The position numbers and the translations under genes are program-made. Below the pieces are notes generated by a model. It was not told the DNA's origin. It ran no database searches and saw nothing but the letters and a program-made list of their open reading frames with translations. Source: a virus. Taken from it: a DNA stretch of 19,994 nucleotides. The stretch lies in the UHGV virus genome UHGV-0075856; one strand, 5' to 3'. Shown piece after piece: positions 2,318 through 19,541 of the stretch (positions are counted from its first letter, which is position 1; every line of letters starts with the position of its first letter).

Positions 2318-5300
2318 ATGGAAAGAAAAAACGCCAACATTGACGATGTTATAAGGACAGTTGAAACCGCCAGTGCAAAAGAGCTGGAAGAGCTTGCAGG
2401 TATCCGGGAAGCTGTTGAAGATTTGAAAGGGGGACGCGTTGCAACTGTTGATCCTGTCTCTCGCAGTGTGTCGGCATTAAATCGCACAATCGAAAATTCC
2501 CGGCCAGACTTTGTGGCCAATGCGCCATCAGTGGACCCTATTGTTGAGGCAATGAAACGGCTTAATTTAGGGGACGTTTCTCGTGTAGTTCAGGAAGATG
2601 TTGCTCAACAGGAACAGCGGGCCAAATCAACCACACCAAAGGGTAAAAAACGACGCAGGAAGGCTATACCAGAGGATGTAAAGGCACAACGGACCGAAGC
2701 AGCCGAACACGCTCGCGAAATGTTCGGTCAAAAAGGCGGTGCGCAAAAAAGCCAAAACCAACGCGATGCGCGTGGTCGTTTTATTGGAAAGTCAGGGAGT
2801 AAGGCCGCAGCGGAAGATGCCCGTGCTGAACGAGCAGAAAAGGCCAGGCGAAAAGAGGATGATGAGCGTCTAAATGCTGAATCAGGTTTATTAAAAAAAC
2901 TGTCAAAAGTAGCTGAAGGCATAGGTAACCCTTCAGAGACTCGTGCTGTCGATGCGTTAGGTTATGCCGTTGCAGGTCCATTGTGGGCAGCAGGGAAGGA
3001 GCTTGGCGGGATATCAAAAGAAGTTGGCGGATCGCTTAATGGTGCCAGAAAGTCTATTGCCGATGTGATTCGTGGCAATGACGATAACAGCCGTAGAAAA
3101 GGTTTTTTTAGGCGTAAATCGCAAAATAGTGCCGATGTCGTTCAGGTTAACACCCAAAAACGGACGGTTCAGGAACTTCAGGAGCAGACCAGCGAAATTA
3201 AAGAGGGCAATGACAAGATTCTCAGCGCCCTTGATCAGATAGCCAAAAACACCGGGAAAAAGAAGGGCGGCTTGCTGTCCAAACTATTTAGCCTGTTAGG
3301 GAAGGGGGCCGGTGGCGTCGCGTCGTTGTTAATGGGGCGTGGCATGCTGAAAAAAGCTGGAGCACTCGCTTTTGGCGCTCTGGGGGCAAAGAAACTTGTA
3401 GGAATGCTACGCGGTGGTGGTAAGAAGACTCTCGCCCATGAAGGCGGAGATTTGGCTGCCCGGGCAGCAGGTAAACTTGGATTAAAGGCAGTTGGTAAAG
3501 GGGCGTTACGCGCAATTCCCCTAGTCGGCACAGTGGTTGGAGGTATTTATGATGCGGTAACCGGTTGGAATGATACAGAAGCGCAACGTCGAGCGTTTGG
3601 GCTTAAATCAGGACAAGATCCATCATTCCAGCAAAAAGCCGCTTATACGTTAGCTAATATTCTTGATATGGGGGGACTGGTATCTGGTATTAGCAGCGCC
3701 ATTGGTGAGGTTCTCAAATCACTTGGATTTGAGGATATCGGCAATATGTTGCAATCATTTTCGACGGAAAGTATTGCCCATGCCATTGATAGTGGGATTA
3801 CCAACTTAGAAACATATATTTCTAACCTTGGCGACACCATTTCTACCAAGTTCGATGATTACACAGCAAAGATTGGTGATGCTGTTTCAGCATGGTTTAG
3901 CGATACATCTAATAAGCTGCTTGAAAAGCTGGATGCCATCAAAGACTTCTTTACTGTCGATAACCTGAAACAGGTTTTCAGTGATGCAATTGATAGTGCA
4001 ATTGATTTCATTAAGAACCCAGGGAAACACATTAAAGAGGCGGCTGGTAATATTTGGGATGGGGTTAAAAATTTACCAGGTAAAGCATTAGATGCAGCGG
4101 TTGATGCCGTTAAAAATACCCCTGCGGCAATGATTGTATCAAAAATACCCAATCCGATCGGCGAGGCTAATGCGAAAGAAATCACTCCAGAGTTAAAAGC
4201 TCCGGTTAATAGCCACCAGGAGACATCTGATTCTAAAACTGAATCCGATGCCAAACAGACTAATATTGTTACCCGCGTGATAAATGCGGCACTGGACACG
4301 GCGAAAGATAGCAATAAAACAGTTAAAGAAACTGCTAATCAGATTATCAATGCAAATGCCGTAGAAACGGGCAATAGCGCGTTGCAGAAAATTGATAAAG
4401 CTATTGGTCAAAATAGCTCGTCATCATCGTCGCTTAATACCACTGGCACCAGGAATGACATTCAGAAAGCTGCGGATACCTACAACAATGGCAACTTGGA
4501 TGTAAAAGTCGGAAGTCTTGGCGCTGAAGGTAAGGCAAATCTCGATAAGTTGGCTCCGTATTTTGCCGAACTAGAGAATAAATACGGTCTTCCAGAAGGC
4601 ACTCTTTACGCGATTGCTGCAACTGAATCTGGTGGTAATCCGTATGCAAAATCCCAAACCGGTGCTCTGGGGATGTTTCAGTTCACGGGGATTGCTCGTG
4701 AAGAGACTGGCTTAGCTGAAGGTGAATCGTTTGATCCTGTGAAATCGGCAGAAGCTGCGGCTCTTCTCATGAGCAAATATCTGAAGCAAGCCAATGGAGA
4801 CTTAAACGAGGCCATCACTGCATATAATGCTGGGTTTGGCACTATCAATAAGTGGAAAAAAGGCACAGGTGACTTATCGAAAGAAAACCGTGAGTACGCG
4901 ATCAAGGTCAATACTCATCGTGCTCGCTATTTAGGTGGTGAAATCTATACACCTGGAGCAGGAGCACAGGGTGGGGCGCAATATGGAGTGAGGGGACCAC
5001 TGCCTGATAACGCTGTTATCGATCAGTCTACTGGCCTGGCGTTTACCCCTGGTGATAGCCCGTTTGAGAAAGGCGGTCTGGTAGACAAAATTGGCAATGC
5101 TGTTGGCGTTAACGATCTGGTCAACAAATTCATGAATGGCCGGGGTATGCGTCGGGAAGTCGTTCAGGGAACGCTCGAAGAACGTGCACGAGGGAAGGGG
5201 ACCGCAACAGCAGCTGGCAATGTGTATGTTGATACTCCGATGCCAGTTGAAGAGGCGCGTCCGGTGGCCAGCAACTCAAGTTACTTTGACCAACTCGGCG

Positions 5301-6066: not shown

Positions 6067-7496
6067 GTAAAACAACACCGACTAAAGACAGTATTCGTGC
6101 AGAGTTTGAAGAGCTTGTCGAGAAAGATTCATTCTGGTCGAAGTTTGTCGGCTCTCAATTTGTCTCGATGCTGACATTGTTTATTACCCAGATTGTCTAC
6201 AGGTGCTTTCAGTATGCCGATGCGGCGCTGGCTGAAGGCTTTATATCGACCGCGACGCGGCGTTCCTCTATCCTGGCAGCGGCAGAAACGAATAGTTACG
6301 TTGGTACCAAGCCAACACCGTCATCGGGGATGATTGAGATCACCGCCACAAGTGAAGATGCCCCAGCGGTAATCCCCAAAAACATGCCTTTAATATCTGA
6401 CGACCAGTACCCTTACATGACTATGGATGTATGCAGGTTGGTTGACGGCACCGGTACGGTAGAAGTGGCACAGTTGGAAATCCAGGAGGTGACATATACC
6501 GTTACGGCAGCCAAAGAATTTCTGGAAGTCGTGTTATCAAAGGCTCTCACTGCTGTCTGCTGTAAGCTGGAAGTATTCGTGACGACCGATGGTAAGACCA
6601 CGCAGTGGTCTTCCAGCACTATGTTCCGGTTAGCCGGTAGTAAAAGCCAGGTCTACGTTGAGTTTTATAAGCCATCCGAGCAGTTGGGGGTTCGATTCGG
6701 TGATGGGCTAATTGGGCAAATACCGCCAGAAGGCTCGACCATTACACTTAAGGTATGGTGCACCAACGGAGATATAACCCTGGTTGCTGGCCAAAACCTG
6801 ACTCCTGTCGATTCTGCGGCTAATTTAGCTAATTTGATTTCAGTTAAGACAACGACACCCATAACCGCAGGTACCGATGCCGAAACAACGGAGATCACAC
6901 GTAATCGTGCACAATATTACCTTGCCTATGATGATCAGGTCGTATGGGGCGGGGACTATACGTATTTTCTGGTGCGTAACATCCCGGGACTGTCCTGGGT
7001 AAAGGCATGGGGCGAAGGCCAGCAAGAGAAATTAGATGGTGCTTATAATGTTCGGAATATCAATAAGATATTTATTTCAGGATGGCATCCAAACAAAAGC
7101 CAGTCAGAGCTTGAAGAAATGATCCTGGCTGCCTTTAAGAAGGTGCCGAATGAGTTGAACAAGAAATTCTCGTATAAAGAGGTCAGAAAACTCCCCTTTA
7201 AGATCACCATCACTGGGCGGATATCGGCAAGCCTGACCATTGAGAACGTGACTGATGAGCTGAAGTCGGCACTGGAAACAAAATTTGGGCGTGACTCAAC
7301 TTTCTTTGATCCGAACCGTGTCGGCAAGTACATCCTAATCAAGAAAAAAGACGTTTGGGCATTTATCGAAACGCTGGGTTATTTCCGCGACTTTTATCTG
7401 GAATTTGTCGAGTGGAATGAGTCCAACGGCTTTTACGATTTCGTTTATCTGGATACAGAAAACTCCACCTTTAATATTTCGTATGAGGAGGAGTGA
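6063..7496 (+). CDS. Baseplate structural protein (477 aa), J/gp6-like candidate
   Basis: ORF start overlaps the upstream stop; assignment is from position in the baseplate block only. Confidence 0.4.
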   Translation: MSKTTPTKDSIRAEFEELVEKDSFWSKFVGSQFVSMLTLFITQIVYRCFQYADAALAEGFISTATRRSSILAAAETNSYVGTKPTPSSGMIEITATSEDAPAVIPKNMPLISDDQYPYMTMDVCRLVDGTGTVEVAQLEIQEVTYTVTAAKEFLEVVLSKALTAVCCKLEVFVTTDGKTTQWSSSTMFRLAGSKSQVYVEFYKPSEQLGVRFGDGLIGQIPPEGSTITLKVWCTNGDITLVAGQNLTPVDSAANLANLISVKTTTPITAGTDAETTEITRNRAQYYLAYDDQVVWGGDYTYFLVRNIPGLSWVKAWGEGQQEKLDGAYNVRNINKIFISGWHPNKSQSELEEMILAAFKKVPNELNKKFSYKEVRKLPFKITITGRISASLTIENVTDELKSALETKFGRDSTFFDPNRVGKYILIKKKDVWAFIETLGYFRDFYLEFVEWNESNGFYDFVYLDTENSTFNISYEEE

Positions 7497-8856: not shown

Positions 8857-9930
8857 ATGAATGACGTTACAGTTGTTACATCGGTTACTTACCCATCACC
8901 CGAGTCGTTGGCTCTGGTGGCTGATGTGCAATACCACGAACCATATCTGTCAGCCGCTCTAAACCGAAAATTCAGGGGAATTGTTGACCCGGGATTTTAT
9001 GCTGGTTTCTTGCCTAAGCCTGGCGGTGGGATGAACCTGTTAATCACCTCAGTGGATGGAGATAAAACCGCTGGCGCGGCGTCAGTGGATATTGGTGAAT
9101 TCTACCAGGTAACTATTCAGCATCGTAAGGATATCTCTCTTGCACTTAACGCAGGCAAGAAATATGCAATTGTGCTGAAGGGAAGATACCTTCTTGGAGA
9201 AGATACCTATCAGGTGAATACCGCGTCACATATTCATGCAGCTGAATTTGTTGCCAGAACCTATACCGATTCATATCAGTTAGGTGATGGGGAACTGCTG
9301 GTTTGTACGGTGAATATCCCTGCTGGCGTATCTACCATTACTCAAGAGATGATTGATACATCCGAGCGTATCAACCGCACGATCGGCATTGATATTTCAG
9401 ACTCTGTAACCAGTACCAGAAGTGATGTTGCTGCGAGTTCGCTGGCAGTTAAAAAAGCCTACGATCTGGCGAAAAGCAAGTATACGGCGCAGGATGCAAG
9501 CACAACGCAAAAGGGATTAGTTCAGCTCAGTAGTGCCACTAACAGCACGTCTGAAGTGCTGGCCGCCACACCGAAAGCTGTCAAGGCTGCATATGATTTG
9601 GCTAACGGGAAGTATACAGCCCAGGATGCAACCACGGCTCAAAAAGGGATAGTCCAACTCAGCAGTGCTACCAATAGCACGTCCGAAGTGCTGGCCGCCA
9701 CACCGAAAGCTGTCAAGGCTGCATATGATTTGGCTAATGGAAAGCAAGCGGCAGACGCTACGCTCACTGCTCTAGCGGCACTAGCTACAGCAGCAGATAA
9801 ACTCCCTTATTTCACAGGTGTTGATCGTGCCGCGTTAACTGCATTGACAAGTGTTGGACGCGCCATTCTTGGTAAGACCAGTATTCAGAGCGTTCTTGAT
9901 TACCTTCCATTTCTGCTAAAGCACCCATGA
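8857..9930 (+). CDS. Tail fibre, constant N-terminal/shaft part (Sc); in this orientation it ends prematurely 8 codons after the inversion crossover (…SVLDY-LPFLLKHP*) and lacks a receptor-binding domain
   Basis: ATG at 8857 with AGGA RBS (the track ORF from 8770 overlaps the upstream gene). Contains 2.3 copies of a 44-aa phage fibre repeat (…QKG-VQLSSATNSTSEVLAATPKAVKAAYDLA…). The sequence after 9904 is the antisense of an invertase gene and hits a stop at 9928-9930. Confidence 0.8.
   Translation: MNDVTVVTSVTYPSPESLALVADVQYHEPYLSAALNRKFRGIVDPGFYAGFLPKPGGGMNLLITSVDGDKTAGAASVDIGEFYQVTIQHRKDISLALNAGKKYAIVLKGRYLLGEDTYQVNTASHIHAAEFVARTYTDSYQLGDGELLVCTVNIPAGVSTITQEMIDTSERINRTIGIDISDSVTSTRSDVAASSLAVKKAYDLAKSKYTAQDASTTQKGLVQLSSATNSTSEVLAATPKAVKAAYDLANGKYTAQDATTAQKGIVQLSSATNSTSEVLAATPKAVKAAYDLANGKQAADATLTALAALATAADKLPYFTGVDRAALTALTSVGRAILGKTSIQSVLDYLPFLLKHP
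9449..9745 (+). repeat. Tandem direct repeat, 132-bp unit x about 2.3, near-identical at nucleotide level, encoding the 44-aa fibre-shaft repeat
   Basis: Read directly: units begin at about 9449, 9581 and 9713; GAAGTGCTGGCCGCCACACCGAAAGCTGTCAAGGCTGCATATGATTTGGCTAA recurs at 9553 and 9685. Confidence 0.85.
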
Positions 9931-10249
9931 CATGAAAAAAGAAACGCCCCATGGGTGTTGATGTGTCAATACTGTCTGTCAGACTACGGAAATTAACACC
10001 TTTTTCCCGCAACTCCTCTATAAGCGTGATAAGGTGTTTCATACTTCTGCCAAGCCTATCCAGCTTCCAGACAACCAGCGTATCTCCTTCTGATAACGTT
10101 CTGAGCAGCTTTTTCAAGCCTGGTCTGGCTGACTTTGTTCCGCTTATTTTATCTTCAAAAATCAGTTCACATCCTGCGCAGTTCAGTGCATTTCTTTGTA
10201 AATCTGTGTTTTGGTCATTTGTTGACACACGAATGTAGCCAATTTGCAT
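9812..10249 (-). CDS. Serine DNA invertase (Hin/Gin/Pin family), N-terminal catalytic fragment only; invertase-homologous codons span 10249 down to 9905, then the frame runs into antisense fibre sequence to a stop at 9812
   Basis: Translation MQIGYIRVSTNDQNTDLQRNAL…GDTLVVWKLDRLGRSMKHL…SLTDSIDTSTPMGRFFFHVMGALAEME is the conserved invertase catalytic domain (active-site Ser in YIRVSTNDQ) and then becomes unrelated (GNQERSEYWS…). ATG at 10247-10249 with AAGAGG RBS; the track's TTG at 10258 is 3 codons upstream. HTH domain is absent here. Confidence 0.85.
   Translation of the reverse strand: MQIGYIRVSTNDQNTDLQRNALNCAGCELIFEDKISGTKSARPGLKKLLRTLSEGDTLVVWKLDRLGRSMKHLITLIEELREKGVNFRSLTDSIDTSTPMGRFFFHVMGALAEMEGNQERSEYWSYQEWRVQHLSMQLTRHDQHL
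9893..9918. other. Hybrid serine-invertase crossover site: hix/gix-like left half-site TTCTTGATTACC, central TT (9905-9906), right half CCATTTCTGCTA derived from inside the invertase ORF
   Basis: Left half matches 10/12 to the hixL half-site TTCTTGAAAACC as I recall it. Right half does not match the consensus and is the reverse complement of invertase codons about 114-118. The central dinucleotide coincides with the point where both gene fusions become in-frame. Confidence 0.6.
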
Positions 10250-10302: not shown

Positions 10303-10330
10303 TAAGACTAAAACGTTGGTTTGGGGGAAG
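10303..10330. other. Invertase crossover site at the start of the Sv cassette (AAGACTAAAACG-TT-GGTTTGGGGGAA), adjacent to the invertase promoter region
   Basis: Half-sites resemble hix/gix (…AAAAC-N2-GGTTT…). Right half is identical to the fibre half of the reconstructed Sc junction site. Lies about 60 bp upstream of the invertase start on the opposite strand. Confidence 0.55.
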
Positions 10331-10530
10331 GCTCTGCACTGCCTGTTGGTGTGCCCGTTCCGTGGCCCTTAGAAACACCACCAACGGGCTGGCTAAAATG
10401 CAATGGTGCAGCATTTTCTTCTGAAATGTATCCCAAACTGGCAAAGGCCTACCCCACCAATAAATTACCGGATTTACGCGGTGAGTTTATCCGTGGTTGG
10501 GATGATGGGCGAGGTGTGGATGCGGGAAGG
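10316..10530 (+). repeat. Left inverted repeat of the invertible fibre cassette (conserved 5' part of Sv), about 200 bp, about 90% identical to the inverted copy at 11685-11898
   Basis: Direct comparison: ACGTTGGTTTGGGGGAAGGCTCTGCACTGCCTGTTGGTGTGCCCGTTCCGTGGCC here versus the reverse complement of 11843-11898 (CACGTTGGTTTGGGGGAAGGCTCAGCATTGCCTGTTGGCGTACCTGTTCCGTGGCC). Encoded peptides are near-identical for about 62 aa. Confidence 0.85.
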
Positions 10531-10779
10531 GTCATCTTAAGCATACAGGGGTGGTTAACAGGAAGTCATTATCATAATATTCGGTCATGGGACGCGTGGG
10601 ATAACACGGTATTGGTGCCAAATGACAGAGGGGGGGATAGTCTGTTGTCGACAGATAACGCCGTCCGGCAAGGAGCGATTAATGGTAAATTTACCAGTCA
10701 ATACAGAACGGAGTTATCTGGGGGGAATGAAACCCGCCCACGTAACATTGCCTTCAATTATATTGTGAGAGCAGCATAA
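10321..10779 (+). CDS. Tail-fibre variable C-terminal cassette Sv (receptor-binding part); not fused to Sc in this orientation (in-frame TAA two codons upstream), so the TTG 'start' in the ORF track is an artefact
   Basis: Peptide GEGSALPVGVPVPWP…GWLKCNGAAF…ETRPRNIAFNYIVRAA is paralogous to the - strand cassette. The frame opens exactly at the crossover site and is immediately followed by a fibre-assembly gene. Confidence 0.7.
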   Translation: MGEGSALPVGVPVPWPLETPPTGWLKCNGAAFSSEMYPKLAKAYPTNKLPDLRGEFIRGWDDGRGVDAGRVILSIQGWLTGSHYHNIRSWDAWDNTVLVPNDRGGDSLLSTDNAVRQGAINGKFTSQYRTELSGGNETRPRNIAFNYIVRAA

Positions 10780-11390
10780 TGGATAATGCGATATTAAATA
10801 GCGAACTTATAGCCATACAGGCAGGAAACATTATCGTTTATAACTATGATGGTGGTAATCGGGAATATATTTCTGCATCAACTGAATATCTTGCTGTTGG
10901 CGTTGGTATTCCGGCAAATTCTTGTTTGGATGCTCCAGGCTCACATAAAGCAGGTTATGCGATTCTCCGTTCAGAGGATTTAAGTTCATGGGAGTATGTG
11001 CCAGATCATCGTGGCGAAACTGTCTATAGCATTGACACTGGGAATCCCGAAGAAATCACGGTGTTGGGTGACTATCCGGAAAATACAACCACTATCGCCC
11101 CGCTAACACCATACGACAAATGGGATGGAGAGAAATGGGTGGTTGATACTGAGGCTCAACATAGTGCAGCTGTAGAGGCAGCAGAAACAAAACGTCAGTC
11201 ATTGATTGATACTGCGATGGATTCCATTAGTCTGATTCAGTTGAAATTACGGGCTGGACGGAAGTTGACGCAGGCAGAAACCACGCAGCTTAACTCCGTG
11301 CTAGATTATATAGACGAGCTGAACGCGATGGATTTAACCACGGCACCAGATCTCAACTGGCCTGAAAAACAACTTTCTACAGCCAGTTGA
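10779..11390 (+). CDS. Tail-fibre assembly chaperone (U/Tfa-like, 203 aa)
   Basis: ATG overlaps the Sv stop (TAATG). Sits directly downstream of a fibre C-terminal cassette inside the invertible segment, as in Mu/P1/e14 Tfa arrangements. Assignment by position and size. Confidence 0.6.
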   Translation: MDNAILNSELIAIQAGNIIVYNYDGGNREYISASTEYLAVGVGIPANSCLDAPGSHKAGYAILRSEDLSSWEYVPDHRGETVYSIDTGNPEEITVLGDYPENTTTIAPLTPYDKWDGEKWVVDTEAQHSAAVEAAETKRQSLIDTAMDSISLIQLKLRAGRKLTQAETTQLNSVLDYIDELNAMDLTTAPDLNWPEKQLSTAS

Positions 11391-11395
11391 TATAA

Positions 11396-11898
11396 TTAAT
11401 CCGCCCTCACAATATAATTAAATGCAATATTACGAGGGCGGGTTTCTAAGCCAGCAGTACCTAAATTAGCTACGGACTGTTTATATGTTTTAAAAGTTCC
11501 ATAATTAGGGGCTGGCAATCCTGCATCGCTTGTGTTCCCCCATCTGATAACTCCCGTATTACCACTAGTAGCCCATGCCTCGTCAAAGTAGAAATTAATT
11601 GAGCGGTCAGTTGCTACGGTTGATTTTGACGGTAATCCGTGAGCATGATCCTCCGTTGCATATCCTTGCTCGCTTAAAATAGAGCGACCAGAGTCAATCC
11701 CTCGCCCATCATCCCAGCCACGGATAAACTCACCGCGTAAATCAGGTAATTTTAACGTTGGGTAAACCTTTGCCAGATTTGGGTACTTTTCAGAAGAAAA
11801 TGCTGCTCCGTTACATTTCAGCCACCCCGTTGGCGGAGTGGCTGAGGGCCACGGAACAGGTACGCCAACAGGCAATGCTGAGCCTTCCCCCAAACCAA
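11396..11898 (-). CDS. Alternative tail-fibre variable C-terminal cassette Sv'; would be fused in frame to Sc after inversion
   Basis: Peptide (from the crossover) GLGEGSALPVGVPVPWPSATPPTGWLKCNGAAFSSEKYPNLAKVYPT…ETRPRNIAFNYIVRAD: same conserved ends as Sv with a divergent central region. The ORF-track N-terminal extension (12049-11899) is antisense of the invertase C-terminus and not part of the fibre. Confidence 0.75.
11402..11441. other. Inverted repeat CCGCCCTC…GAGGGCGG (8-bp stem, 24-nt AT-rich loop) between the convergent chaperone and Sv' 3' ends; possible bidirectional terminator
   Basis: Read directly; lies within the last codons of Sv' on the - strand and 12 nt after the chaperone stop; followed by GTTTCT on +. 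Confidence 0.3.
11685..11898 (-). repeat. Right inverted repeat of the invertible fibre cassette (conserved 5' part of Sv')
   Basis: Reverse complement matches 10316-10530 as described for the left repeat. Confidence 0.85.
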
Positions 11899-11910
11899 CG
11901 TGAATTAATT
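11873..11910. other. Second hybrid crossover site: fibre half-site TTCCCCCAAACC, central AA (11897-11898), then CGTGAATTAATT which is invertase codons 119-122 (R-E-L-I)
   Basis: The fibre inverted repeat ends exactly at the codon where invertase homology resumes. The central AA is the complement of the TT at 9905-9906. Confidence 0.6.
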
Positions 11911-12126
11911 GTTGAGAGAACACTGGCCGGACTGGCAGCTGCACGCGAACAGGGACGCATTGGCGGACGTCGCCCGAAGTTGACAAAAGAACAACATGAG
12001 CAAATAGCGAGGTTGATCGAAAATGGCTACAGCAGGAAACAGTTGGCAATTATTTACGATATCGGTGTATCGACGATTTATCGTTATCATCCTGTAGAGA
12101 AGCGCCAAACTCAATCTGAGCTGTAA
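11899..12126 (+). CDS. Serine DNA invertase C-terminal fragment (end of E-helix plus HTH DNA-binding domain, 75 codons); no native start codon in this arrangement
   Basis: Peptide RELIVERTLAGLAAAREQGRIGGRRPKLTKEQHEQIARLIENGYSRKQLAIIYDIGVSTIYRYHP matches the Hin/Gin C-terminus and continues precisely from …GALAEME at the end of the - strand fragment. Upstream in-frame residues (MGKPLPDLG…LPPNQ) are antisense of Sv'. Confidence 0.85.
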   Translation, partial: RELIVERTLAGLAAAREQGRIGGRRPKLTKEQHEQIARLIENGYSRKQLAIIYDIGVSTIYRYHPVEKRQTQSEL

Positions 12127-12435
12127 TTCTAATGCCGCGTCGGTGTAATTTATCTTGATAGAATAGGTACATTTATCGCGCGGCACATCAATTCGATGTA
12201 TCTAGCGCCTGCTGACCGCTAATGAAAACTGTTCTCGAAATGTTGTCCCTAGTCCGAGACTAGGGTATCACCTCTGGAAAGCATACGCAGAACCTTTTTT
12301 AACCCAGGGTGCCCAGCTTTTTTGCTGCTCGCCTTATTCGCAAAAATTAGCTCACATCCTGCGCTTTCAAGTGCTTTTCACTGCATAGCTGTGTTTTGTT
12401 CATTTGTCTATATGCGTACATAGCCTATTAGCATA
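12127..12435 (-). pseudogene. Decayed Cin-like serine invertase remnant (N-terminal about 100 codons, several in-frame stops and frameshifts), convergent with the invertase C-terminal fragment
   Basis: Reverse-strand translation from 12435: MLIGYVR-I*-TNEQNTAMQ*-KALESAGCELIFANKASSKKAGHPGLKKVLRMLSRGDTLV… then frameshifted (…ALDTS…). About 75% nucleotide identity to the 5' end of the invertase at 10121-10250. Recognisable homology fades near 12190; the 3' boundary is uncertain. Confidence 0.7.
12247..12265. other. Perfect palindrome CCCTAGTC-CGA-GACTAGGG inside the invertase pseudogene, at the point where its reading frame collapses
   Basis: Read directly; sits where the pseudogene stops tracking …GDTLVVWKLDRLGRS… in the intact paralogue. 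Confidence 0.5.
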
Positions 12436-12561
12436 TTTTCTGCCCACTATCGTTATTTATTGCAAGCTACAGGTTTTAATTAACAAAACCAGTGTGTGTG
12501 GAAATCACAAAGTGCATACCGTTCTCAAATGTTGTTCAACTTACTGTTGTATAGGTAAAAA

Positions 12562-12825
12562 ATGACATTTTATGTACATATCGTGATGTTATCCCTTCTT
12601 GGTGGGGTGTATTCGTATTTGAGTGGGCTATGTGAAAACCGTTACGAGTCTTCATGCAAGAAATTGCTGGCCGAATGTATTTCCGCCGTACTTGCTGGCT
12701 TTATTGGCATGTATCTCGCGGAATATAAGGACATGAATGAAAGCCTTCAGAGCTGCATGGTTCTTATTTTCAGCGCCAATAGCAGGCTTATTATTGAAGG
12801 TTCCAAAAGTCGGTTGAATAGGTAA
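12562..12825 (+). CDS. Small hydrophobic ORF (87 aa, two predicted membrane segments), unassigned; may be non-coding
   Basis: Open frame with ATG, but only a weak RBS (TAGGTAAAAA). Two hydrophobic stretches (IVMLSLLGGVYSYLSGL; ISAVLAGFIGMYLA). Sits in a 0.77-kb gap between the invertase remnants and the holin gene. Confidence 0.3.
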   Translation: MTFYVHIVMLSLLGGVYSYLSGLCENRYESSCKKLLAECISAVLAGFIGMYLAEYKDMNESLQSCMVLIFSANSRLIIEGSKSRLNR

Positions 12826-12899
12826 GTCTCTTATGCAACATAACCGGTTGAGAAGTTACTTTGCATACCATTACCTCCTGACAACGTAGGAGGGAACTT

Positions 12900-13229
12900 G
12901 TGCTTGACACACAGGAATTAGCTCCAGTTGCTATTGCGCTCCTGCTTTCAGTAATTGGTGGGATAGGCACGTTCCTGATGGATGTCCGAGACGGTCGCCA
13001 GTCTGGCAATTTGTTGGGATTGGTTACGGAGATCTTTGTTGCAGTGACAGCTGGCGCGGTGGCGTACCTATTGGGGCAACACGAGGGCTGGGAGTTATCA
13101 ATTACGTACTTAATGGTAACGATAGCCAGCAATAACGGTCATGAGGTGATTTCAGGGATGAAACGAGTGAATATCGATAGCATTCTGAATGTTCTTACAA
13201 GTTTGGTGAAAAAGGGAGGCGGGAAATGA
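12900..13229 (+). CDS. lydA: Holin (P1 LydA-like, 109 aa)
   Basis: GTG start 5 nt after a strong AGGAGGGAA RBS. 109 aa with hydrophobic membrane segments and a charged C-terminus (…VKKGGGK). Size, position ahead of a 147-aa partner and a dar operon match P1 lydA as I recall it. Confidence 0.6.
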   Translation: MLDTQELAPVAIALLLSVIGGIGTFLMDVRDGRQSGNLLGLVTEIFVAVTAGAVAYLLGQHEGWELSITYLMVTIASNNGHEVISGMKRVNIDSILNVLTSLVKKGGGK

Positions 13230-13669
13230 TTGGCTGGGGTGTATGCGTTCTTGCGTTAGCCTTAGCCGATCGCTATTTGCTAAAACGCAAGGACATCACG
13301 CATTTAGAACTTGGTGATGTGGAAATTAAACCGGGTTTCATCCGGGTGCCGTTCAAATACCGGTCTAAATTCCCGTTTTTGCGCGGCGCAACGGTCAGAT
13401 ATTGGATCCGCGATGTTCAGAAGCCGACGACAGTGATTGAAGGCGAACAACGTTGTTTGACGTCGGCTGAACAGGGCGAAAACAGTGAATGGTTGTACAT
13501 ACCCACTGAATATATGGGTAAAGGAGAGCGACTGTGGCATTTCAACGTCATGGTTACGCATGGCGACTCGTTCATTAACCCGTTGTATCGGATTTTCCCT
13601 GTTACTCAGCAAATCCGCAGAAGTTACGTAATAAATCTCGCACAGGATGTGTCAGATGACGAAAAATAA
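13226..13669 (+). CDS. lydB: Antiholin / holin-associated protein (P1 LydB-like, 147 aa)
   Basis: ATGA overlap with the holin stop (translational coupling). N-terminal hydrophobic segment (GWGVCVLALALA). Size and synteny match P1 lydB as recalled; no catalytic motif seen. Confidence 0.5.
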   Translation: MIGWGVCVLALALADRYLLKRKDITHLELGDVEIKPGFIRVPFKYRSKFPFLRGATVRYWIRDVQKPTTVIEGEQRCLTSAEQGENSEWLYIPTEYMGKGERLWHFNVMVTHGDSFINPLYRIFPVTQQIRRSYVINLAQDVSDDEK

Positions 13670-14258
13670 GTATGCAACGGTCGATTTTGACCAGGTTAAT
13701 GAAAAGGGGCTGAAATCCCTTATCGCGGCGATCAATAAAACCGGTGTTACGGTAATTGAGGTTGACTCCAGCAACCGCGCAACAACGAAAGATGGCGTTA
13801 AAGTTAAAACCGCAAAGCTGGTTCTTAACGACGGACAAATTCTTGCCATACAGGTAAACGATACTGGCGATATATCGTCTGTGAGGCTGAATGGAAAAGC
13901 TATTCCTAACGCTCAGTCGCCGGATATCAAGACGCTTGGTACCGTCATGGGGCAAGCGGCCCGCAAAAACTCCGCAAAATTCCAGAAATCACTGATCGCC
14001 AAAGCGAAACGTGTTGCCAATCCGGTAGACAAGAAACCGGCAGTAAAATCCAACTTTCAGCGCCTGCAAGAGGCAAAACAGCGGAATGCTCAGGTGGTTG
14101 CCGCTTATAAATCAGCGCAGAACTCGGTGTCTTTCAATCAACAGCAGATCACTGATTTGCGGGCGAAGCTGGATAAGGAGACAGGCCGACTCAATAACGA
14201 AAAGGCCCGAAATGGCGAACTCAAACGCCGTCTTAAGCAACTGAAAGCAGGAAATTAA
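13656..14258 (+). CDS. hdf: Hdf-like protein (DarA-homologous fragment; head-associated antirestriction/morphogenesis component), about 200 aa
   Basis: ATG at 13656 with AGGA RBS (track ORF starts at 13647). Shares a segment with the next ORF (…ARKNSAKFQKSLIAKAK… versus …AEKNSAKFQRAQKKKK…, and AAAAACTC[C/G]GCAAAATTCCAG at the nucleotide level). Both have a coiled-coil-like stretch. Confidence 0.55.
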   Translation: MTKNKYATVDFDQVNEKGLKSLIAAINKTGVTVIEVDSSNRATTKDGVKVKTAKLVLNDGQILAIQVNDTGDISSVRLNGKAIPNAQSPDIKTLGTVMGQAARKNSAKFQKSLIAKAKRVANPVDKKPAVKSNFQRLQEAKQRNAQVVAAYKSAQNSVSFNQQQITDLRAKLDKETGRLNNEKARNGELKRRLKQLKAGN

Positions 14259-14259
14259 C

Positions 14260-16179
14260 ATGGAACAGTTCAATATCAATAAAGGGGTGACGATCAAGCC
14301 TGGGCTTGACGTGCTTCCCCCGCCAGTGACTGATGATGAATATCGCGCATTAATGGCCGGTGAGGACCGCTATCTGATGACGGAATCCAACACCCTGGAG
14401 GAAATCGAGGCTACGTTCTTCTATGACACGCCGATCCACTGGTGTGCTACGGATTTACTGGAGGCGATTAGTTCTACTCGTTTGCAGTTACACCGGACCA
14501 TGCAGGCATTTGTCCGGGCATTAAACCAGAAGCTGAATGGTACCGGAATCTCTGCGGGGAGTGATAAAACGGGGGATGTGGCCCAGAACGGTGCACGCGC
14601 GATCGGCGGGGCTGAAATTGGCCGGGCACGTAACGTTAACGGGCTGCCGGTCCTGCCAGCCATTATTCCGCTCAGTGATGGTCAGACTATCAGCATTCTG
14701 TTTCATAGCCCGACAGCGGAAAACCGGATCACCAATAGCGATACGCTGATTGCTTTCCAGTTCTTACTGAATAAAAAAGACGTTACTCATACCGTTGCTC
14801 CGATGAGTGGACGTGATATGACGCTGGCGCAGGTCACCATGAAACTTGCCAACCTTGCAGAGAAAAACTCGGCAAAATTCCAGCGTGCGCAGAAGAAGAA
14901 AAAAGCCCTGGTTGATGAAATAACCCAACTACAGGCTGACAGTGACCAGAAAGAGGATGCCATGAGCGACCTCGCGGATCAGGTGGCAGCGGTAGAAGGG
15001 CAGAAGGTAGATCTGGAGCAGAAAATTAACGCTGTTGCATCGGAAGCGGATTCTCTTTATGAAGAGAATGAGCGTTTGCAGACGGAGATTGATCAGCTCA
15101 ATCGAACTGGTGGGCGCGAAACCATTGCTCCTGCGGGGATGACTGGTGGACACTCTCGCGCGATGACGGATCGCCTTGCAAGTATCAAAAATCGTATGCA
15201 TATGAACGGGGAAGTGACGCTCAGTAATGGTGCATCAATGAAGCAATTCATTGAGGACGGTGAAGGGTATATCCAGTTAACCGATTCGGATGGCAGCGTG
15301 TACATGATCAAGGCTAAATCCATACAGGGTGTGGACATGGCAGATGCGATCGGCAAGCTGTTTAAAGCCTATAAAGCGGGTAATGTATCGGAATACCTGG
15401 TCCAACCAGAAGAACATAAACCGGAAAACGTCGAACCTGAACCAGCGGAGGATACCGGTAGCTCTTCGCCTGAACCAGAAGTCTCTGTAGGTGCATATCG
15501 ATATGCCCTGCAAATGCGTCCGGCGGCCCCTGGCGCAATACCTGAAGGTAACAAAGCAATTCTGCCGCGCCCTGATGAAGGTGACCCGTATTATGAATAT
15601 GCACGCTACGGCATTGCTACTTACGATACCCCGCTTTCTGATCAGCAAATGAGTGAGTACGACCTGAAGTTATTGCCTCGCGAGGATTCTTTCGACTTCT
15701 TGGCGAAGACACTTACTAATGGTCCGTTTGGCAAATATGCACAAAAAGCTCTGGAGCTGGCCACCAGCTCACCAGACGAGTTCCGCGTAATGCTGAAAAC
15801 TCAGTTTCAAAAAACTTTCCCCAATATTGCGTATCCGGGGGGCGCTGGCACCGAAAAAATGGTGCAGAGCATGATCAATGCATTGCAGGCCGAAGTCGGT
15901 GAGATTACTCAGCCAGAACCTGCCCCGGCACAGCCTGATGAAACGGTTAGCGAAGCAGATGCAGAGGCTAATAAAGCCATTGAATATCTCAATAACGTGA
16001 TGGATATGCAAAGCACTGACATGGCGGAGATCCGTAACGCCCGGGGCAATGTCCGGGAAGCGATTGCAGCCCTTCAGGCTGCCGGGCGTTTTGAGGAAAA
16101 CGAAGAGCTGGTTAATGGCGCTGCTCGCCACCTGGCTGATCTGCTGGTAGCAATCCAGAAAGCGGGGGTAGCGGCATGA
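14260..16179 (+). CDS. darA: DarA-like antirestriction/capsid-internal protein (639 aa)
   Basis: 639-aa ORF starting 2 nt after the previous stop. Internal homology to the preceding Hdf-like ORF, a heptad-rich coiled coil (…DEITQLQADSDQKEDAMSDLADQVAAVEGQKVDLEQKINAV…) and an acidic Pro/Glu-rich linker. Size and order (holin, antiholin, hdf, darA, ddrA, ddrB) match the P1 darA operon as I recall it. Confidence 0.6.
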   Translation: MEQFNINKGVTIKPGLDVLPPPVTDDEYRALMAGEDRYLMTESNTLEEIEATFFYDTPIHWCATDLLEAISSTRLQLHRTMQAFVRALNQKLNGTGISAGSDKTGDVAQNGARAIGGAEIGRARNVNGLPVLPAIIPLSDGQTISILFHSPTAENRITNSDTLIAFQFLLNKKDVTHTVAPMSGRDMTLAQVTMKLANLAEKNSAKFQRAQKKKKALVDEITQLQADSDQKEDAMSDLADQVAAVEGQKVDLEQKINAVASEADSLYEENERLQTEIDQLNRTGGRETIAPAGMTGGHSRAMTDRLASIKNRMHMNGEVTLSNGASMKQFIEDGEGYIQLTDSDGSVYMIKAKSIQGVDMADAIGKLFKAYKAGNVSEYLVQPEEHKPENVEPEPAEDTGSSSPEPEVSVGAYRYALQMRPAAPGAIPEGNKAILPRPDEGDPYYEYARYGIATYDTPLSDQQMSEYDLKLLPREDSFDFLAKTLTNGPFGKYAQKALELATSSPDEFRVMLKTQFQKTFPNIAYPGGAGTEKMVQSMINALQAEVGEITQPEPAPAQPDETVSEADAEANKAIEYLNNVMDMQSTDMAEIRNARGNVREAIAALQAAGRFEENEELVNGAARHLADLLVAIQKAGVAA

Positions 16180-16541
16180 CACTATCAGCTATTGAGTTAA
16201 TGGATCTCAGCGATAAGTTGGATGCTCTGATGTCCAAAGCGGCTACCGCGAGTGGCATGGAGTTGCTGGATATCAGCGATGAAATCGACCAGATCATGCA
16301 ACAGATGGGGTACGGCGCGTCCGGAGGTGGTAGTGGCGAGGAAAAACAACCTTCGGAACATGATGGTGTGCCAAAACTGGTTGCTGATTTCCTGGCTGAT
16401 AAATTCGTCGATCAGAGCACCGATGCATTTATCGGTACCTTGCAGGATTTGAGTCAATATGTTGGCACATACATCGACCTGGACCAGGTTAAACAGCACA
16501 CGGCGGCATGGATAGCCGCCAACATTAAAGAGGCAGCATAA
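16176..16541 (+). CDS. ddrA: DdrA-like small acidic protein of the Dar operon (121 aa)
   Basis: ATGA overlap with the darA-like stop; acidic; assignment by synteny and size. Confidence 0.5.
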   Translation: MTLSAIELMDLSDKLDALMSKAATASGMELLDISDEIDQIMQQMGYGASGGGSGEEKQPSEHDGVPKLVADFLADKFVDQSTDAFIGTLQDLSQYVGTYIDLDQVKQHTAAWIAANIKEAA

Positions 16542-16553
16542 GGCGTAACAGGG

Positions 16554-19541
16554 ATGAGCTTAAGCGATCAGGTGGTAATGGCCACCAGCATAGAAACGCT
16601 GATCGAGCTGCTAAAGAACTTGCCCGATTATGGGCGGGTTTCGTATGTGGTGACAGCGAAGGGAGACGAGGTAAAAACAGCGTTTGATATCGTCGATGCC
16701 TCAGCTCTTTTGGTATCCAATACTCTGGATGGGAAAATTAATCCTGACTATCCCCAGGAACTTCAACCGCGCGACCGGACCCGCGCATCCAGCCTTCTTC
16801 AGGTTAACCAGATATCCAAGGATTTGCGGCCTGCTCAGCTTACCGATTCCGGTCTATCCAGCCATGGCGCGCCGATAATTGGTGAGGACAATGCCGTTGA
16901 GTCAGGTAATGGACGGACCATGGGGATCATTAAAGCCTATCAGGACGGCAATGCGGATCGGTATCGTGAGTACCTGATTGATCATGCGACCGAATTCGGC
17001 ATACGACCTGAAAAGGTTGAATCAATGACGGCTCCGGTACTGGTGCGCCGCCGGTTAACTAAGGTTGACCGCGTTCAGTTTGCCAAGGACTCAAATATTT
17101 CTGATCTTCAGGAAATGGCAGCCAGTGAAAAGGCTTTTGTTGATGCCGACAGCATAACACCGGCGATGATGGCGCTTTTTAACCCGTCAGAAAGCGGAGA
17201 TCTGCTTAGCCGCAGTAATGACACGTTTATTCGCGGATTTATGACGCAAGTTGGTGCCACACAGGCGGCTGGCCTTGTAACTGAAGATGGGCGACCAACA
17301 CGGCAACTTGTAGACCGTATACAAAACGCGATCTTTGCCAAGGCATATAAGGATGCGCGCCTGGTAAGGATGGTTGCAGAAGAACCTGATCCGGATATGC
17401 GTAATGTTCTGACGGCGCTTAATGCGGCAGCCAATGATTTTGTCCAGATGCAGGCTTTGTCAGGAGAAGCGCACAAGCAGGCTGTGACAACTATTGTTGA
17501 TGGCATTGAGACAGCGGATAGCCTCGATAAAAAGGCGCTGGCGGCATTGAAAGATGCGGTAGACCTGGTAAGGCAATCGAAGGAGTCAGGCCAGCATATT
17601 ACCGATGTTATTGCTCAGGGGGATATGTTCAGCGAAACGGCCCCGGAAGTGAAAGCACTCGCGTTGTTCATCGTCGCGAATAACCGTAGCGCGAAGCGTA
17701 TGGCCACCGCCTTTAAGTTGATGGCGCAACGTATCAATGATGAGTTACAGCACCAGGGCCAGGCGCTCGGGGATATGTTTGGCGGCGGCGATGTGTCGTT
17801 ACAGGATATCCTTCGCCAGGTGTCTCAGGAACTGGAAAACGAAGGCATGCAAGGGATATCCGGCGGTCTTTTCGAGTCCGTTTCCGGCGGTAGTTACAAC
17901 GGTGTTGCTCCATATACCAGCTTGCTATTACATCGGGCATCCGGCATCAAAGACATTATTCATCTGATCAGGCTGCTATCCCGCACCGATCCCCAGGATG
18001 AGCAGCTTGTACAAGTGCTTGCGCATTTTGTCCGAATGCCTGTTGCCGACGTAAAAAAATGGTGCCGATTATTCGGTATCAGCAATTCGTTACTTCGCGG
18101 ATTGTTAAATCACGCATCCTCCCTTGGGCGCGACGGCTTTGATGAGATAGCGCAGGCGATAAAAAACGGAGATATGCCACCAGCTATTGACTGGTTTTCC
18201 ATTCGCCCAACCAGGGTGAAAGCATTCCTTAGCGCGGCGCATTCGGCATCACCATTGGCAGAAATGGTTCAGAGGTTGTCGCTCATATTCACAGACCATA
18301 CCGCGTTGGGTGATCTGACTCTGGACGAGATGAAAGAAGCCTCCATTCAGTGGGCCGATCAACAAAATGAGGTTAACTCTGACTTCTTGCCAGCATTCAG
18401 GAAGGCCGTTAGTAAAGTGGATGATGCCCGTGGAATTCTGAAGGCATTTAAGGCATTGCAAAGTCGGGTTAATAAACATGTCGGTGATATCGATGGGGTA
18501 ACGGCGGAAGGCAGGGATATCCTTAAAGAGCACGGCATAACGCCAGAGTTTATTGATGAGATCAGGACGGATATGCAGCGTGAGGTCGTATCGTCCCTGC
18601 AAATCGTAGCCAGAGCGTTGGCGGATGCTAATCCGAAGAGTGCGGCCATTGTTAACCGGGTTATTGGTGATATTGAAGCATCGGAGGGCATGGGGGCGCT
18701 GAAACTCTTCCTTTCGCGAGCGTTTAATCCTAACGGCAATATTCTCCCCGGCATTATTTGTGAGGCTAAAAAGTATGTCAGCGAAGAAGAACTTGAGCAT
18801 CTTGACCAACTACTTAAGCGATTCTCATATAACCCGCAGACACGCTGGCAAATGAATCAGCGAAGTATGGGTTCGGTCCACGAGAAAGTGTTATCTGCCA
18901 TGAACAGTGCGATCGCCAACTCATCCGTATCTGAAGAAAAAGCTCTTGAGTGGGCCGACTCTTTTATCACGGAAGAAGTGGAAGAAGCCCGCGCTGGACA
19001 GAATGGTGGGATAGACCTGCGCAAGGAACTTGCTGATATTTATCGCCTGACCGGCGGTAAAATTTCGACCTTATCAAAGGTGGTTCACCACCAGGGAAGG
19101 GCATATGCAAATCTAAATGGTGTTGTTGCTGTCAATTTGAACGATGAAAATGCAAGTGCACTGTGGCACGAGCTGGGTCATCATCTTGAGTACAGTAACC
19201 CTGGTTTGTTAGAGAAAGCCCGGTCATTCCTGAAGGCCAATGTTGAAGGGGATAAGCCATCTTTCGTTAATATCGGTGGGCGTGGCAAGCCTGAATGGTG
19301 CTTCAGATCTCGATTGAGTAATATTTATATGGCGAAGGTATACCCGCCAGCCTCAGTAAGTAACACCGGGAAAATTCGGCAGAAATCACCGACTATTTCC
19401 AAAACGTCAGCAACGGAAGTATTCTCTATGGCTCTTCAGTTGTATCATGACAAAGAGGCCGCTGCCGCATCACTGATGAATGGTGACGGATTGCTGGAAC
19501 TGTTATTAGGTGTGGCAAAGGAGCTAAATAATGCAGATTAA
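16554..19541 (+). CDS. ddrB: DdrB-like large Dar-operon protein (995 aa) with an HExxH zinc-metallopeptidase-like motif (WHELGHHLEY at about 19163-19192)
   Basis: 995-aa ORF; motif read directly; assignment by synteny and size. Confidence 0.5.
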   Translation: MSLSDQVVMATSIETLIELLKNLPDYGRVSYVVTAKGDEVKTAFDIVDASALLVSNTLDGKINPDYPQELQPRDRTRASSLLQVNQISKDLRPAQLTDSGLSSHGAPIIGEDNAVESGNGRTMGIIKAYQDGNADRYREYLIDHATEFGIRPEKVESMTAPVLVRRRLTKVDRVQFAKDSNISDLQEMAASEKAFVDADSITPAMMALFNPSESGDLLSRSNDTFIRGFMTQVGATQAAGLVTEDGRPTRQLVDRIQNAIFAKAYKDARLVRMVAEEPDPDMRNVLTALNAAANDFVQMQALSGEAHKQAVTTIVDGIETADSLDKKALAALKDAVDLVRQSKESGQHITDVIAQGDMFSETAPEVKALALFIVANNRSAKRMATAFKLMAQRINDELQHQGQALGDMFGGGDVSLQDILRQVSQELENEGMQGISGGLFESVSGGSYNGVAPYTSLLLHRASGIKDIIHLIRLLSRTDPQDEQLVQVLAHFVRMPVADVKKWCRLFGISNSLLRGLLNHASSLGRDGFDEIAQAIKNGDMPPAIDWFSIRPTRVKAFLSAAHSASPLAEMVQRLSLIFTDHTALGDLTLDEMKEASIQWADQQNEVNSDFLPAFRKAVSKVDDARGILKAFKALQSRVNKHVGDIDGVTAEGRDILKEHGITPEFIDEIRTDMQREVVSSLQIVARALADANPKSAAIVNRVIGDIEASEGMGALKLFLSRAFNPNGNILPGIICEAKKYVSEEELEHLDQLLKRFSYNPQTRWQMNQRSMGSVHEKVLSAMNSAIANSSVSEEKALEWADSFITEEVEEARAGQNGGIDLRKELADIYRLTGGKISTLSKVVHHQGRAYANLNGVVAVNLNDENASALWHELGHHLEYSNPGLLEKARSFLKANVEGDKPSFVNIGGRGKPEWCFRSRLSNIYMAKVYPPASVSNTGKIRQKSPTISKTSATEVFSMALQLYHDKEAAAASLMNGDGLLELLLGVAKELNNAD

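Follow-up and report, generated by a model that had tools for sequence, protein, structure and literature searches.

Results indicated that positions 12258-12434 of the window (the whole 19,994-nucleotide stretch of virus genome UHGV-0075856 that was analysed) very probably represent a relic, now without function, of the cin gene that was resident in a P1-type phage-plasmid. A first-pass annotation, made from the letters alone, had proposed the fossil of a second, Cin-like invertase at 12127-12435, and such a fossil was found there, with 49 of 59 amino acids and 157 of 177 nucleotides (88.7%) identical to P1 cin and a Pfam Resolvase match. The relic lies beside a Min-type invertase that would have arrived with a foreign tail-fibre cassette. 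The features of the region are given in Table 1.

Table 1. Coordinates of the features at and around the cin remnant in the window
Feature	Position	Strand	Basis
Min-type invertase 5' part, codons 1-114 and first base of codon 115	9907..10249	-	split off by inversion
Min-type invertase 3' part, codons 116-190 and stop	11899..12126	+	collinear with intact min (573 nt) of L006 and L004; HTH_7
Spacer, putative 3' flank of the foreign invertase	12127..12245	+	prophage-flank match and sharing with L004
Junction filler, 12 nt	12246..12257		read directly from the sequence
cin remnant, P1-type codons 1-59	12258..12434	-	gap-free P1 cin alignment and Pfam PF00239
Homologue of the recombinational enhancer within P1 cin (cin nt 19-90)	12345..12416		62/72 identical, no indels
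Former cin upstream region	12435..12548	-	P1-homologous; predicted expression signals altered
lydC holin gene	12562..12825	+	PHROG holin E=6e-28; P1 annotation

Identity and extent of the cin remnant

Read on the minus strand, the remnant aligned to P1 cin (nt 1-177) without gaps and gave the translation MLIGYVRI*TNEQNTAMQ*KALESAGCELIFANKASSKKAGHPGLKKVLRMLSRGDTLV, in which asterisks are stops. A tblastn search with P1 Cin produced a significant match to codons 1-59 (E=3e-31, against a small target), and blastn of window 12258-12548 against P1 gave E=5e-96. The Pfam Resolvase profile (PF00239) scored 37.1 bits against a cut-off of 23.3 (E=4.3e-9), positions 2-68 of its 145 alone being matched. 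Absent from the remnant are 127 of the 186 cin codons, including the HTH domain; the HTH_7 profile was found in the Min gene alone.

The limits differ from those first proposed. The ATG sits at 12434 and not at 12435, and no cin similarity was found past codon 59 by tblastn with Cin, so that the homology ends at 12258. It had been thought to reach about 12190 within a segment flagged to 12127, but local alignments of 12257-12127 with min and the remainder of cin, run for both strands, scored at the mean of shuffled controls. The frameshift that had been reported was not found either, as the P1 alignment is gap-free and the homology just ends.

The remnant is nearer to cin than to the other invertase of the window, the Min-type one (157 versus 118 of 177 nt, the latter 66.7%, with 37/59 aa), in agreement with the first-pass reading, and its best non-self phage matches were all P1-group cin genes. 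The 5' end of the window's min also aligns gap-free with cin nt 1-177. The identity of about 75% estimated earlier for the two N-terminal regions holds for the best 94-nt local match, but not across all 177 nt.

Genomic context

The gene order in the window is S tail fibre, invertible segments, invertase, lydC, lydA, lydB, hdf and darA, and 12258-17038 is 95.6% identical to P1 DNA; from these two features the window is identified as a P1-like phage-plasmid. Homology to P1 begins at 12258, takes in the cin upstream region and lydC, the conserved right-hand neighbour that anchors the synteny, and continues to darA.

Within the constant part of the S tail-fibre gene (9430-9752), tandem repeats of ~150 nt were observed (…TAQDA.T.QKG.VQLSSATNSTSEVLAATPKAVKAAYDLA…), which are more numerous in relatives, for example vB_EcoM phage L002 (vB_EcoM-813R1). 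A 230-nt inverted repeat with 82% complementarity (10313-10542 and 11672-11901) codes for the N-terminal parts that the two alternative fibre tips have in common (…GEGSALPVGVPVPWP…), and a single tail-fibre assembly gene (10779-11390) is located between its copies.

Lesions and expression signals

The remnant contains two in-frame stops, a TAG at codon 9 and a TGA at codon 19, which agrees with the earlier count of at least two. The TAG replaces the codon of the catalytic Ser9, which is TCA in P1. Substitutions relative to P1 cin numbered 5, 4 and 11 at the first, second and third codon positions, respectively, with 10 changed codons nonsynonymous and 7 synonymous; the functional pair of cin and min showed 7, 6 and 37, with 10 nonsynonymous versus 30 synonymous. 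Judged by this pattern, the remnant is evidently a decaying pseudogene under relaxed constraint. What an invertase would have, namely a complete catalytic domain (~135 aa) with Ser9, HTH_7 and an uninterrupted frame, is lacking, and the remnant has the properties of a cin pseudogene: it is closest to cin, it holds the cin position together with the upstream DNA, and it carries signs of relaxed constraint.

Changes in the promoters and the ribosome-binding site were read from the alignment to P1, in which the coordinates of both are annotated. The cin Shine-Dalgarno GAG of P1 is GGG in the window. The predicted -10 box of P1cin has changed from TAAAAT to TAAAAC, with a spacer 1 nt shorter, and that of P2cin from TATCAT to CAACAT. 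An active antisense promoter directed toward min was considered and rejected, since the former cin upstream region showed no promoter-like site on its minus strand and carries mutations in both predicted cin -10 boxes. A search of 11700-12900 against Rfam returned no credible known-RNA match.

Junction and spacer

The first-pass annotation had described the 3' end of cin as missing and replaced by the 3' end of the other invertase. It is indeed lost past codon 59, and min is on the opposite strand, but 131 nt of non-invertase DNA (12127-12257) part the remnant from the min stop codon (12124-12126). Positions 12131-12193 are 81% identical to chromosomal P2-like prophage DNA that begins 19 nt downstream of a Min-like invertase. 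The prophage alignment is continuous from inside the invertase gene into the spacer and covers approximately the first 65 nt past the stop. In all, about half of 12127-12257 corresponds to DNA that follows Min-like invertases on their 3' side in such prophages. The D6-like plasmid NZ_CP069886 (L004) shares 96 of 119 spacer positions with the window. This donor-type flank suggests that the 131-nt spacer came, at least in part, with the foreign cassette. A weak terminator-like hairpin was reported by the terminator scan at 12132-12146 within the spacer.

In the junction filler, 12247-12254 (CCCTAGTC) repeats 12258-12265 (GACTAGGG) perfectly in inverted form over 8 bp. The cin homology ends with these latter 8 nt, and the two arms form a hairpin around the 3-nt loop cga. 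The 12 nt are missing from the longer remnant of NZ_CP069886 and can also be loosely aligned to cin codons 63-69. The inverted repeat at the cin end may be filler that was templated when a deletion or join created the present end of the stub.

The Min-type invertase and its inversion

The 3' part of the Min-type gene lies tail-to-tail with the cin remnant. Joining the reverse complement of 9907-10249, AA and 11899-12126 restored a 190-aa ORF identical to WP_001165547 / UniRef Q05517_ECOLX, and relatives L006 and L004 carry the intact 573-nt min on the plus strand. The gene was split by a precise reciprocal inversion between sites at 9894-9916 and 11885-11911, with 2-bp cores TT (9905-9906) and AA (11897-11898), respectively. 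One crossover is the site at the constant/variable junction of the tail fibre, of the type TTCTTGATTACC-TT-GGTTTGGGGGAAG, and the other is a poor quasi-site inside min at codon E115 (GCAGAAATGG-AA-CGTGAATTAATTG). The chimeric junction that splits min was found in zero records among complete E. coli genomes and PLSDB. The neighbour of the remnant, which had been called an active-type invertase, is a distinct invertase as proposed, of Min/Pin type, but it is inactive in the window, being split by inversion. It seems that the Min invertase abolished its own activity, leaving the segment locked. In another P1-like plasmid, an invertase 98.5% identical to p15B Min has been described in reverse orientation relative to cin (PMC6906374).

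In the records of vB_EcoM-813R1 and vB_EcoM-673R5 (4456-5027), min is annotated as two CDS, "Hin1" and "Hin2". The gene measures 572 nt there and not 573, a base being absent in the T-run that encodes FFF, and the missing T is probably a sequencing error.

Distribution of truncated cin genes

The min end, spacer and stub of the window were present at 99% identity or more in 141 PLSDB plasmids and about 155 complete E. coli genome records, and the same arrangement occurs in two deposited phages. The stub is unannotated in records identical to the window. With P1 record 4090-4800 as the cin-region query, 136 of the 415 complete E. coli genomes with a match held at least 80% of it; truncated cin is thus commoner than intact cin among the P1-like elements of these genomes.

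The E. coli stubs sort into several discrete break-point classes, and across lineages the breaks fall at about codons 17, 46, 59, 77 and 103-109. The L012 class keeps about 17 cin codons, while two plasmids (L010 and L011) have about 46 and no invertase whatever. The stub of NZ_CP069886 contains cin codons 1 to ~103 (its end is near 103-109) with a frameshift and stops, and is annotated by PGAP as an incomplete recombinase pseudogene.

The stub of the window is nearest to P1 cin (157/177) and that of NZ_CP069886 to D6 cin (159/175). Between the two elements, identity is only 79% for the stubs and 81% for the spacers but reaches 98.7% for the min 3' parts. The cassette therefore reached P1- and D6-type backbones either by two captures or by recombination between backbones with later exchange of min. 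Shared derived substitutions were examined as proof of a single event and were uninformative, the two stubs having 2 in common versus 21 and 10 private ones. The cin stubs of other lineages are the same kind of scar, made independently.

Origin of the remnant and alternative explanations

With homology, synteny, lesions, donor-type flank and distribution observed as described, we infer an order of events followed by neutral decay. A foreign invertible tail-fibre cassette would have entered from the side of the S (tail-fibre) gene, bringing alternative fibre tips, a tail-fibre assembly gene and a p15B Min-type serine invertase in the orientation opposite to cin. It would have displaced the P1 C segment, the cixL site and the 3' part of cin, and its right-hand junction would have fallen within cin, the first dispensable DNA before lydC/lydA. 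A replacement arriving from the tail-fibre side has to end short of the lysis genes, and this geometry is the simplest reason for a junction inside cin. The stub would then have decayed neutrally, acquiring two nonsense codons (one at the catalytic serine), a mutated Shine-Dalgarno and changes in both predicted -10 boxes. It was perhaps shortened by a further small deletion in the lineage of the window; if the ancestral stub was a longer one, like that of NZ_CP069886, the end at 12258 would have resulted from a further deletion of ~115-150 nt. The stub presumably does nothing now, and inversion would depend on min, itself lost here through inversion. The earlier proposal of two invertase generations, with a captured gene replacing a resident cin, fits these data: the position and orientation of cin and its upstream DNA are kept, and the neighbour is of Min/Pin type with its own tail-fibre segments and a prophage-type flank.

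The proposal that the replacement went through recombination within the invertase genes themselves was not supported, as the two genes are in opposite orientation with the 131-nt gap between them, the junction shows no cin or min similarity beyond shuffled controls, and its position varies among lineages. These last three observations, and the lack of any site-like sequence at 12246-12258 on inspection, also make it most improbable that cin was truncated by site-specific recombination, with Cin or Min acting at a quasi-site inside it, even though a comparable event took place within the window's min (reciprocal exchange at the 2-bp core, codon 115) and the longest remnant, that of NZ_CP069886, ends near the equivalent position. 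That the gene is live and merely looks broken, through sequencing errors or read-through, is practically impossible. Its sole support is a good start codon. The same stops recur in about 150 independent records, which excludes sequencing error; the catalytic serine codon is a stop, and two thirds of cin, DNA-binding domain included, are missing. A functional gene in another frame was not found at the remnant, the ORFs at 12322-12423, 12404-12565 and 11905-12186 being without a PHROG family match.

A retained function of the stub was weighed in two forms. Enhancers of the Hin family are effective at a distance and in either orientation, and the cin-derived, Fis-dependent enhancer could in principle still act in cis for Min as a second or back-up copy, which would explain why the remnant is kept. 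The homologous stretch, mapped from the P1 annotation (P1 record 4588-4659) through the gap-free alignment, is complete in the window (86% identity) and is kept in all three stubs that adjoin a replacement invertase (the window, NZ_CP069886 and SJ46). Such a role is nevertheless very unlikely, going by the sequences compared. Min has an enhancer-homologous stretch of its own in its 5' end, to which the P1 record note maps p15B nt 6463-6533; stubs of similar size are present in the two plasmids without any invertase, and one class is down to ~17 codons. Mismatches are equally dense inside and outside the stretch (10/72 versus 10/105), and the AT-rich tract between the Fis sites, which contributes in Hin (PMC3798978), is altered in the remnant. 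Since stubs persist without any inversion system, their retention needs no function. It is also improbable, if somewhat less remote, that the stub provides right-hand homology that can be reused, perhaps together with a working Fis enhancer, when whole tail-fibre/invertase cassettes are swapped among P1/D6-type phage-plasmids through homologous recombination; if true, such a role would account for the near-identical min beside stubs of two cin alleles.

A decayed scar of module replacement is thus the preferred reading. The stub cleanly marks the repeated replacement of the tail-fibre host-range module in P1-like phage-plasmids. It is of use in the annotation of these plasmids, which are widespread and often carry resistance, and in tracing the lineages that have a cassette-exchange event in common. 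By itself it matters little, and it opens no new mechanism.

Comparison with known systems

In P1, P7 and D6, as the comparison proposed in the first-pass annotation bore out, an intact 186-codon cin occupies the place and orientation of the remnant, divergent from lydC/lydA. It reads toward the C segment, with cixL just past its stop. The window differs in having 59 of the 186 codons left, no catalytic serine, no HTH, no cixL and mutated signals.

Salmonella phage SJ46 (NC_031129) resembles the window in the order of a foreign plus-strand invertase, a minus-strand cin 5' stub and the holin gene. Its invertase is a different one ("pin", MQYGYARVST...), its spacer is different, and its break is at ~codon 77. 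The SJ46 stub, which shares the locus 1740-2677 with this invertase, tail-to-tail, is still an open 74-aa ORF, near-identical to P1/P7 cin and annotated as "DNA invertase", and is an independent, more recent event. A break point shared by SJ46 and the window, as at a hotspot, was rejected because the SJ46 stub reaches ~codon 77, with a 1-nt deletion. Stubs annotated by PGAP as "recombinase family protein, incomplete, missing C-terminus" in P1/D6-like plasmids such as NZ_CP069886, NZ_CP020522 and NZ_CP103706 are likewise 5' stubs of cin at the same place, but they differ from that of the window in length and backbone, and some have no invertase nearby.

The closest system is p15B of E. coli 15T- (X62121), which was compared through the notes in the P1 GenBank record. 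In these, p15B nt 7147-7408 corresponds to P1 cin ~nt 1-173 together with the promoter region (89%, 1 gap), and nt 6463-6533 to the cin enhancer. The span, identity and single gap are the values measured for the window remnant, and the 684 nt between the two p15B segments equal the distance from min nt 25-95 to the stub in L006. With the same cin stub span and min spacing as the window, p15B therefore has the same arrangement. Plasmid pMCR_SCKP-LL83 (MF510496) is 100% identical to the window over 12000-12560, and its segment has been reported as 99% identical to the p15B multiple-inversion region min (PMC5786510). A full-text literature search found no paper explicitly describing the stub. A truncated cin-like 5' region beside min was reportedly already noted by Sandmeier et al. 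in J Bacteriol in 1992, with the same evolutionary conclusion. The p15B-type order of min, cin-homologous stub and lyd genes was found in the window, the p15B side being taken from the P1 record notes. On this comparison no difference from p15B was demonstrable other than the additional split of the window's min by inversion. The cin remnant is thus a common and already recorded module-replacement scar, ordinary among P1-like elements, and not a new feature.
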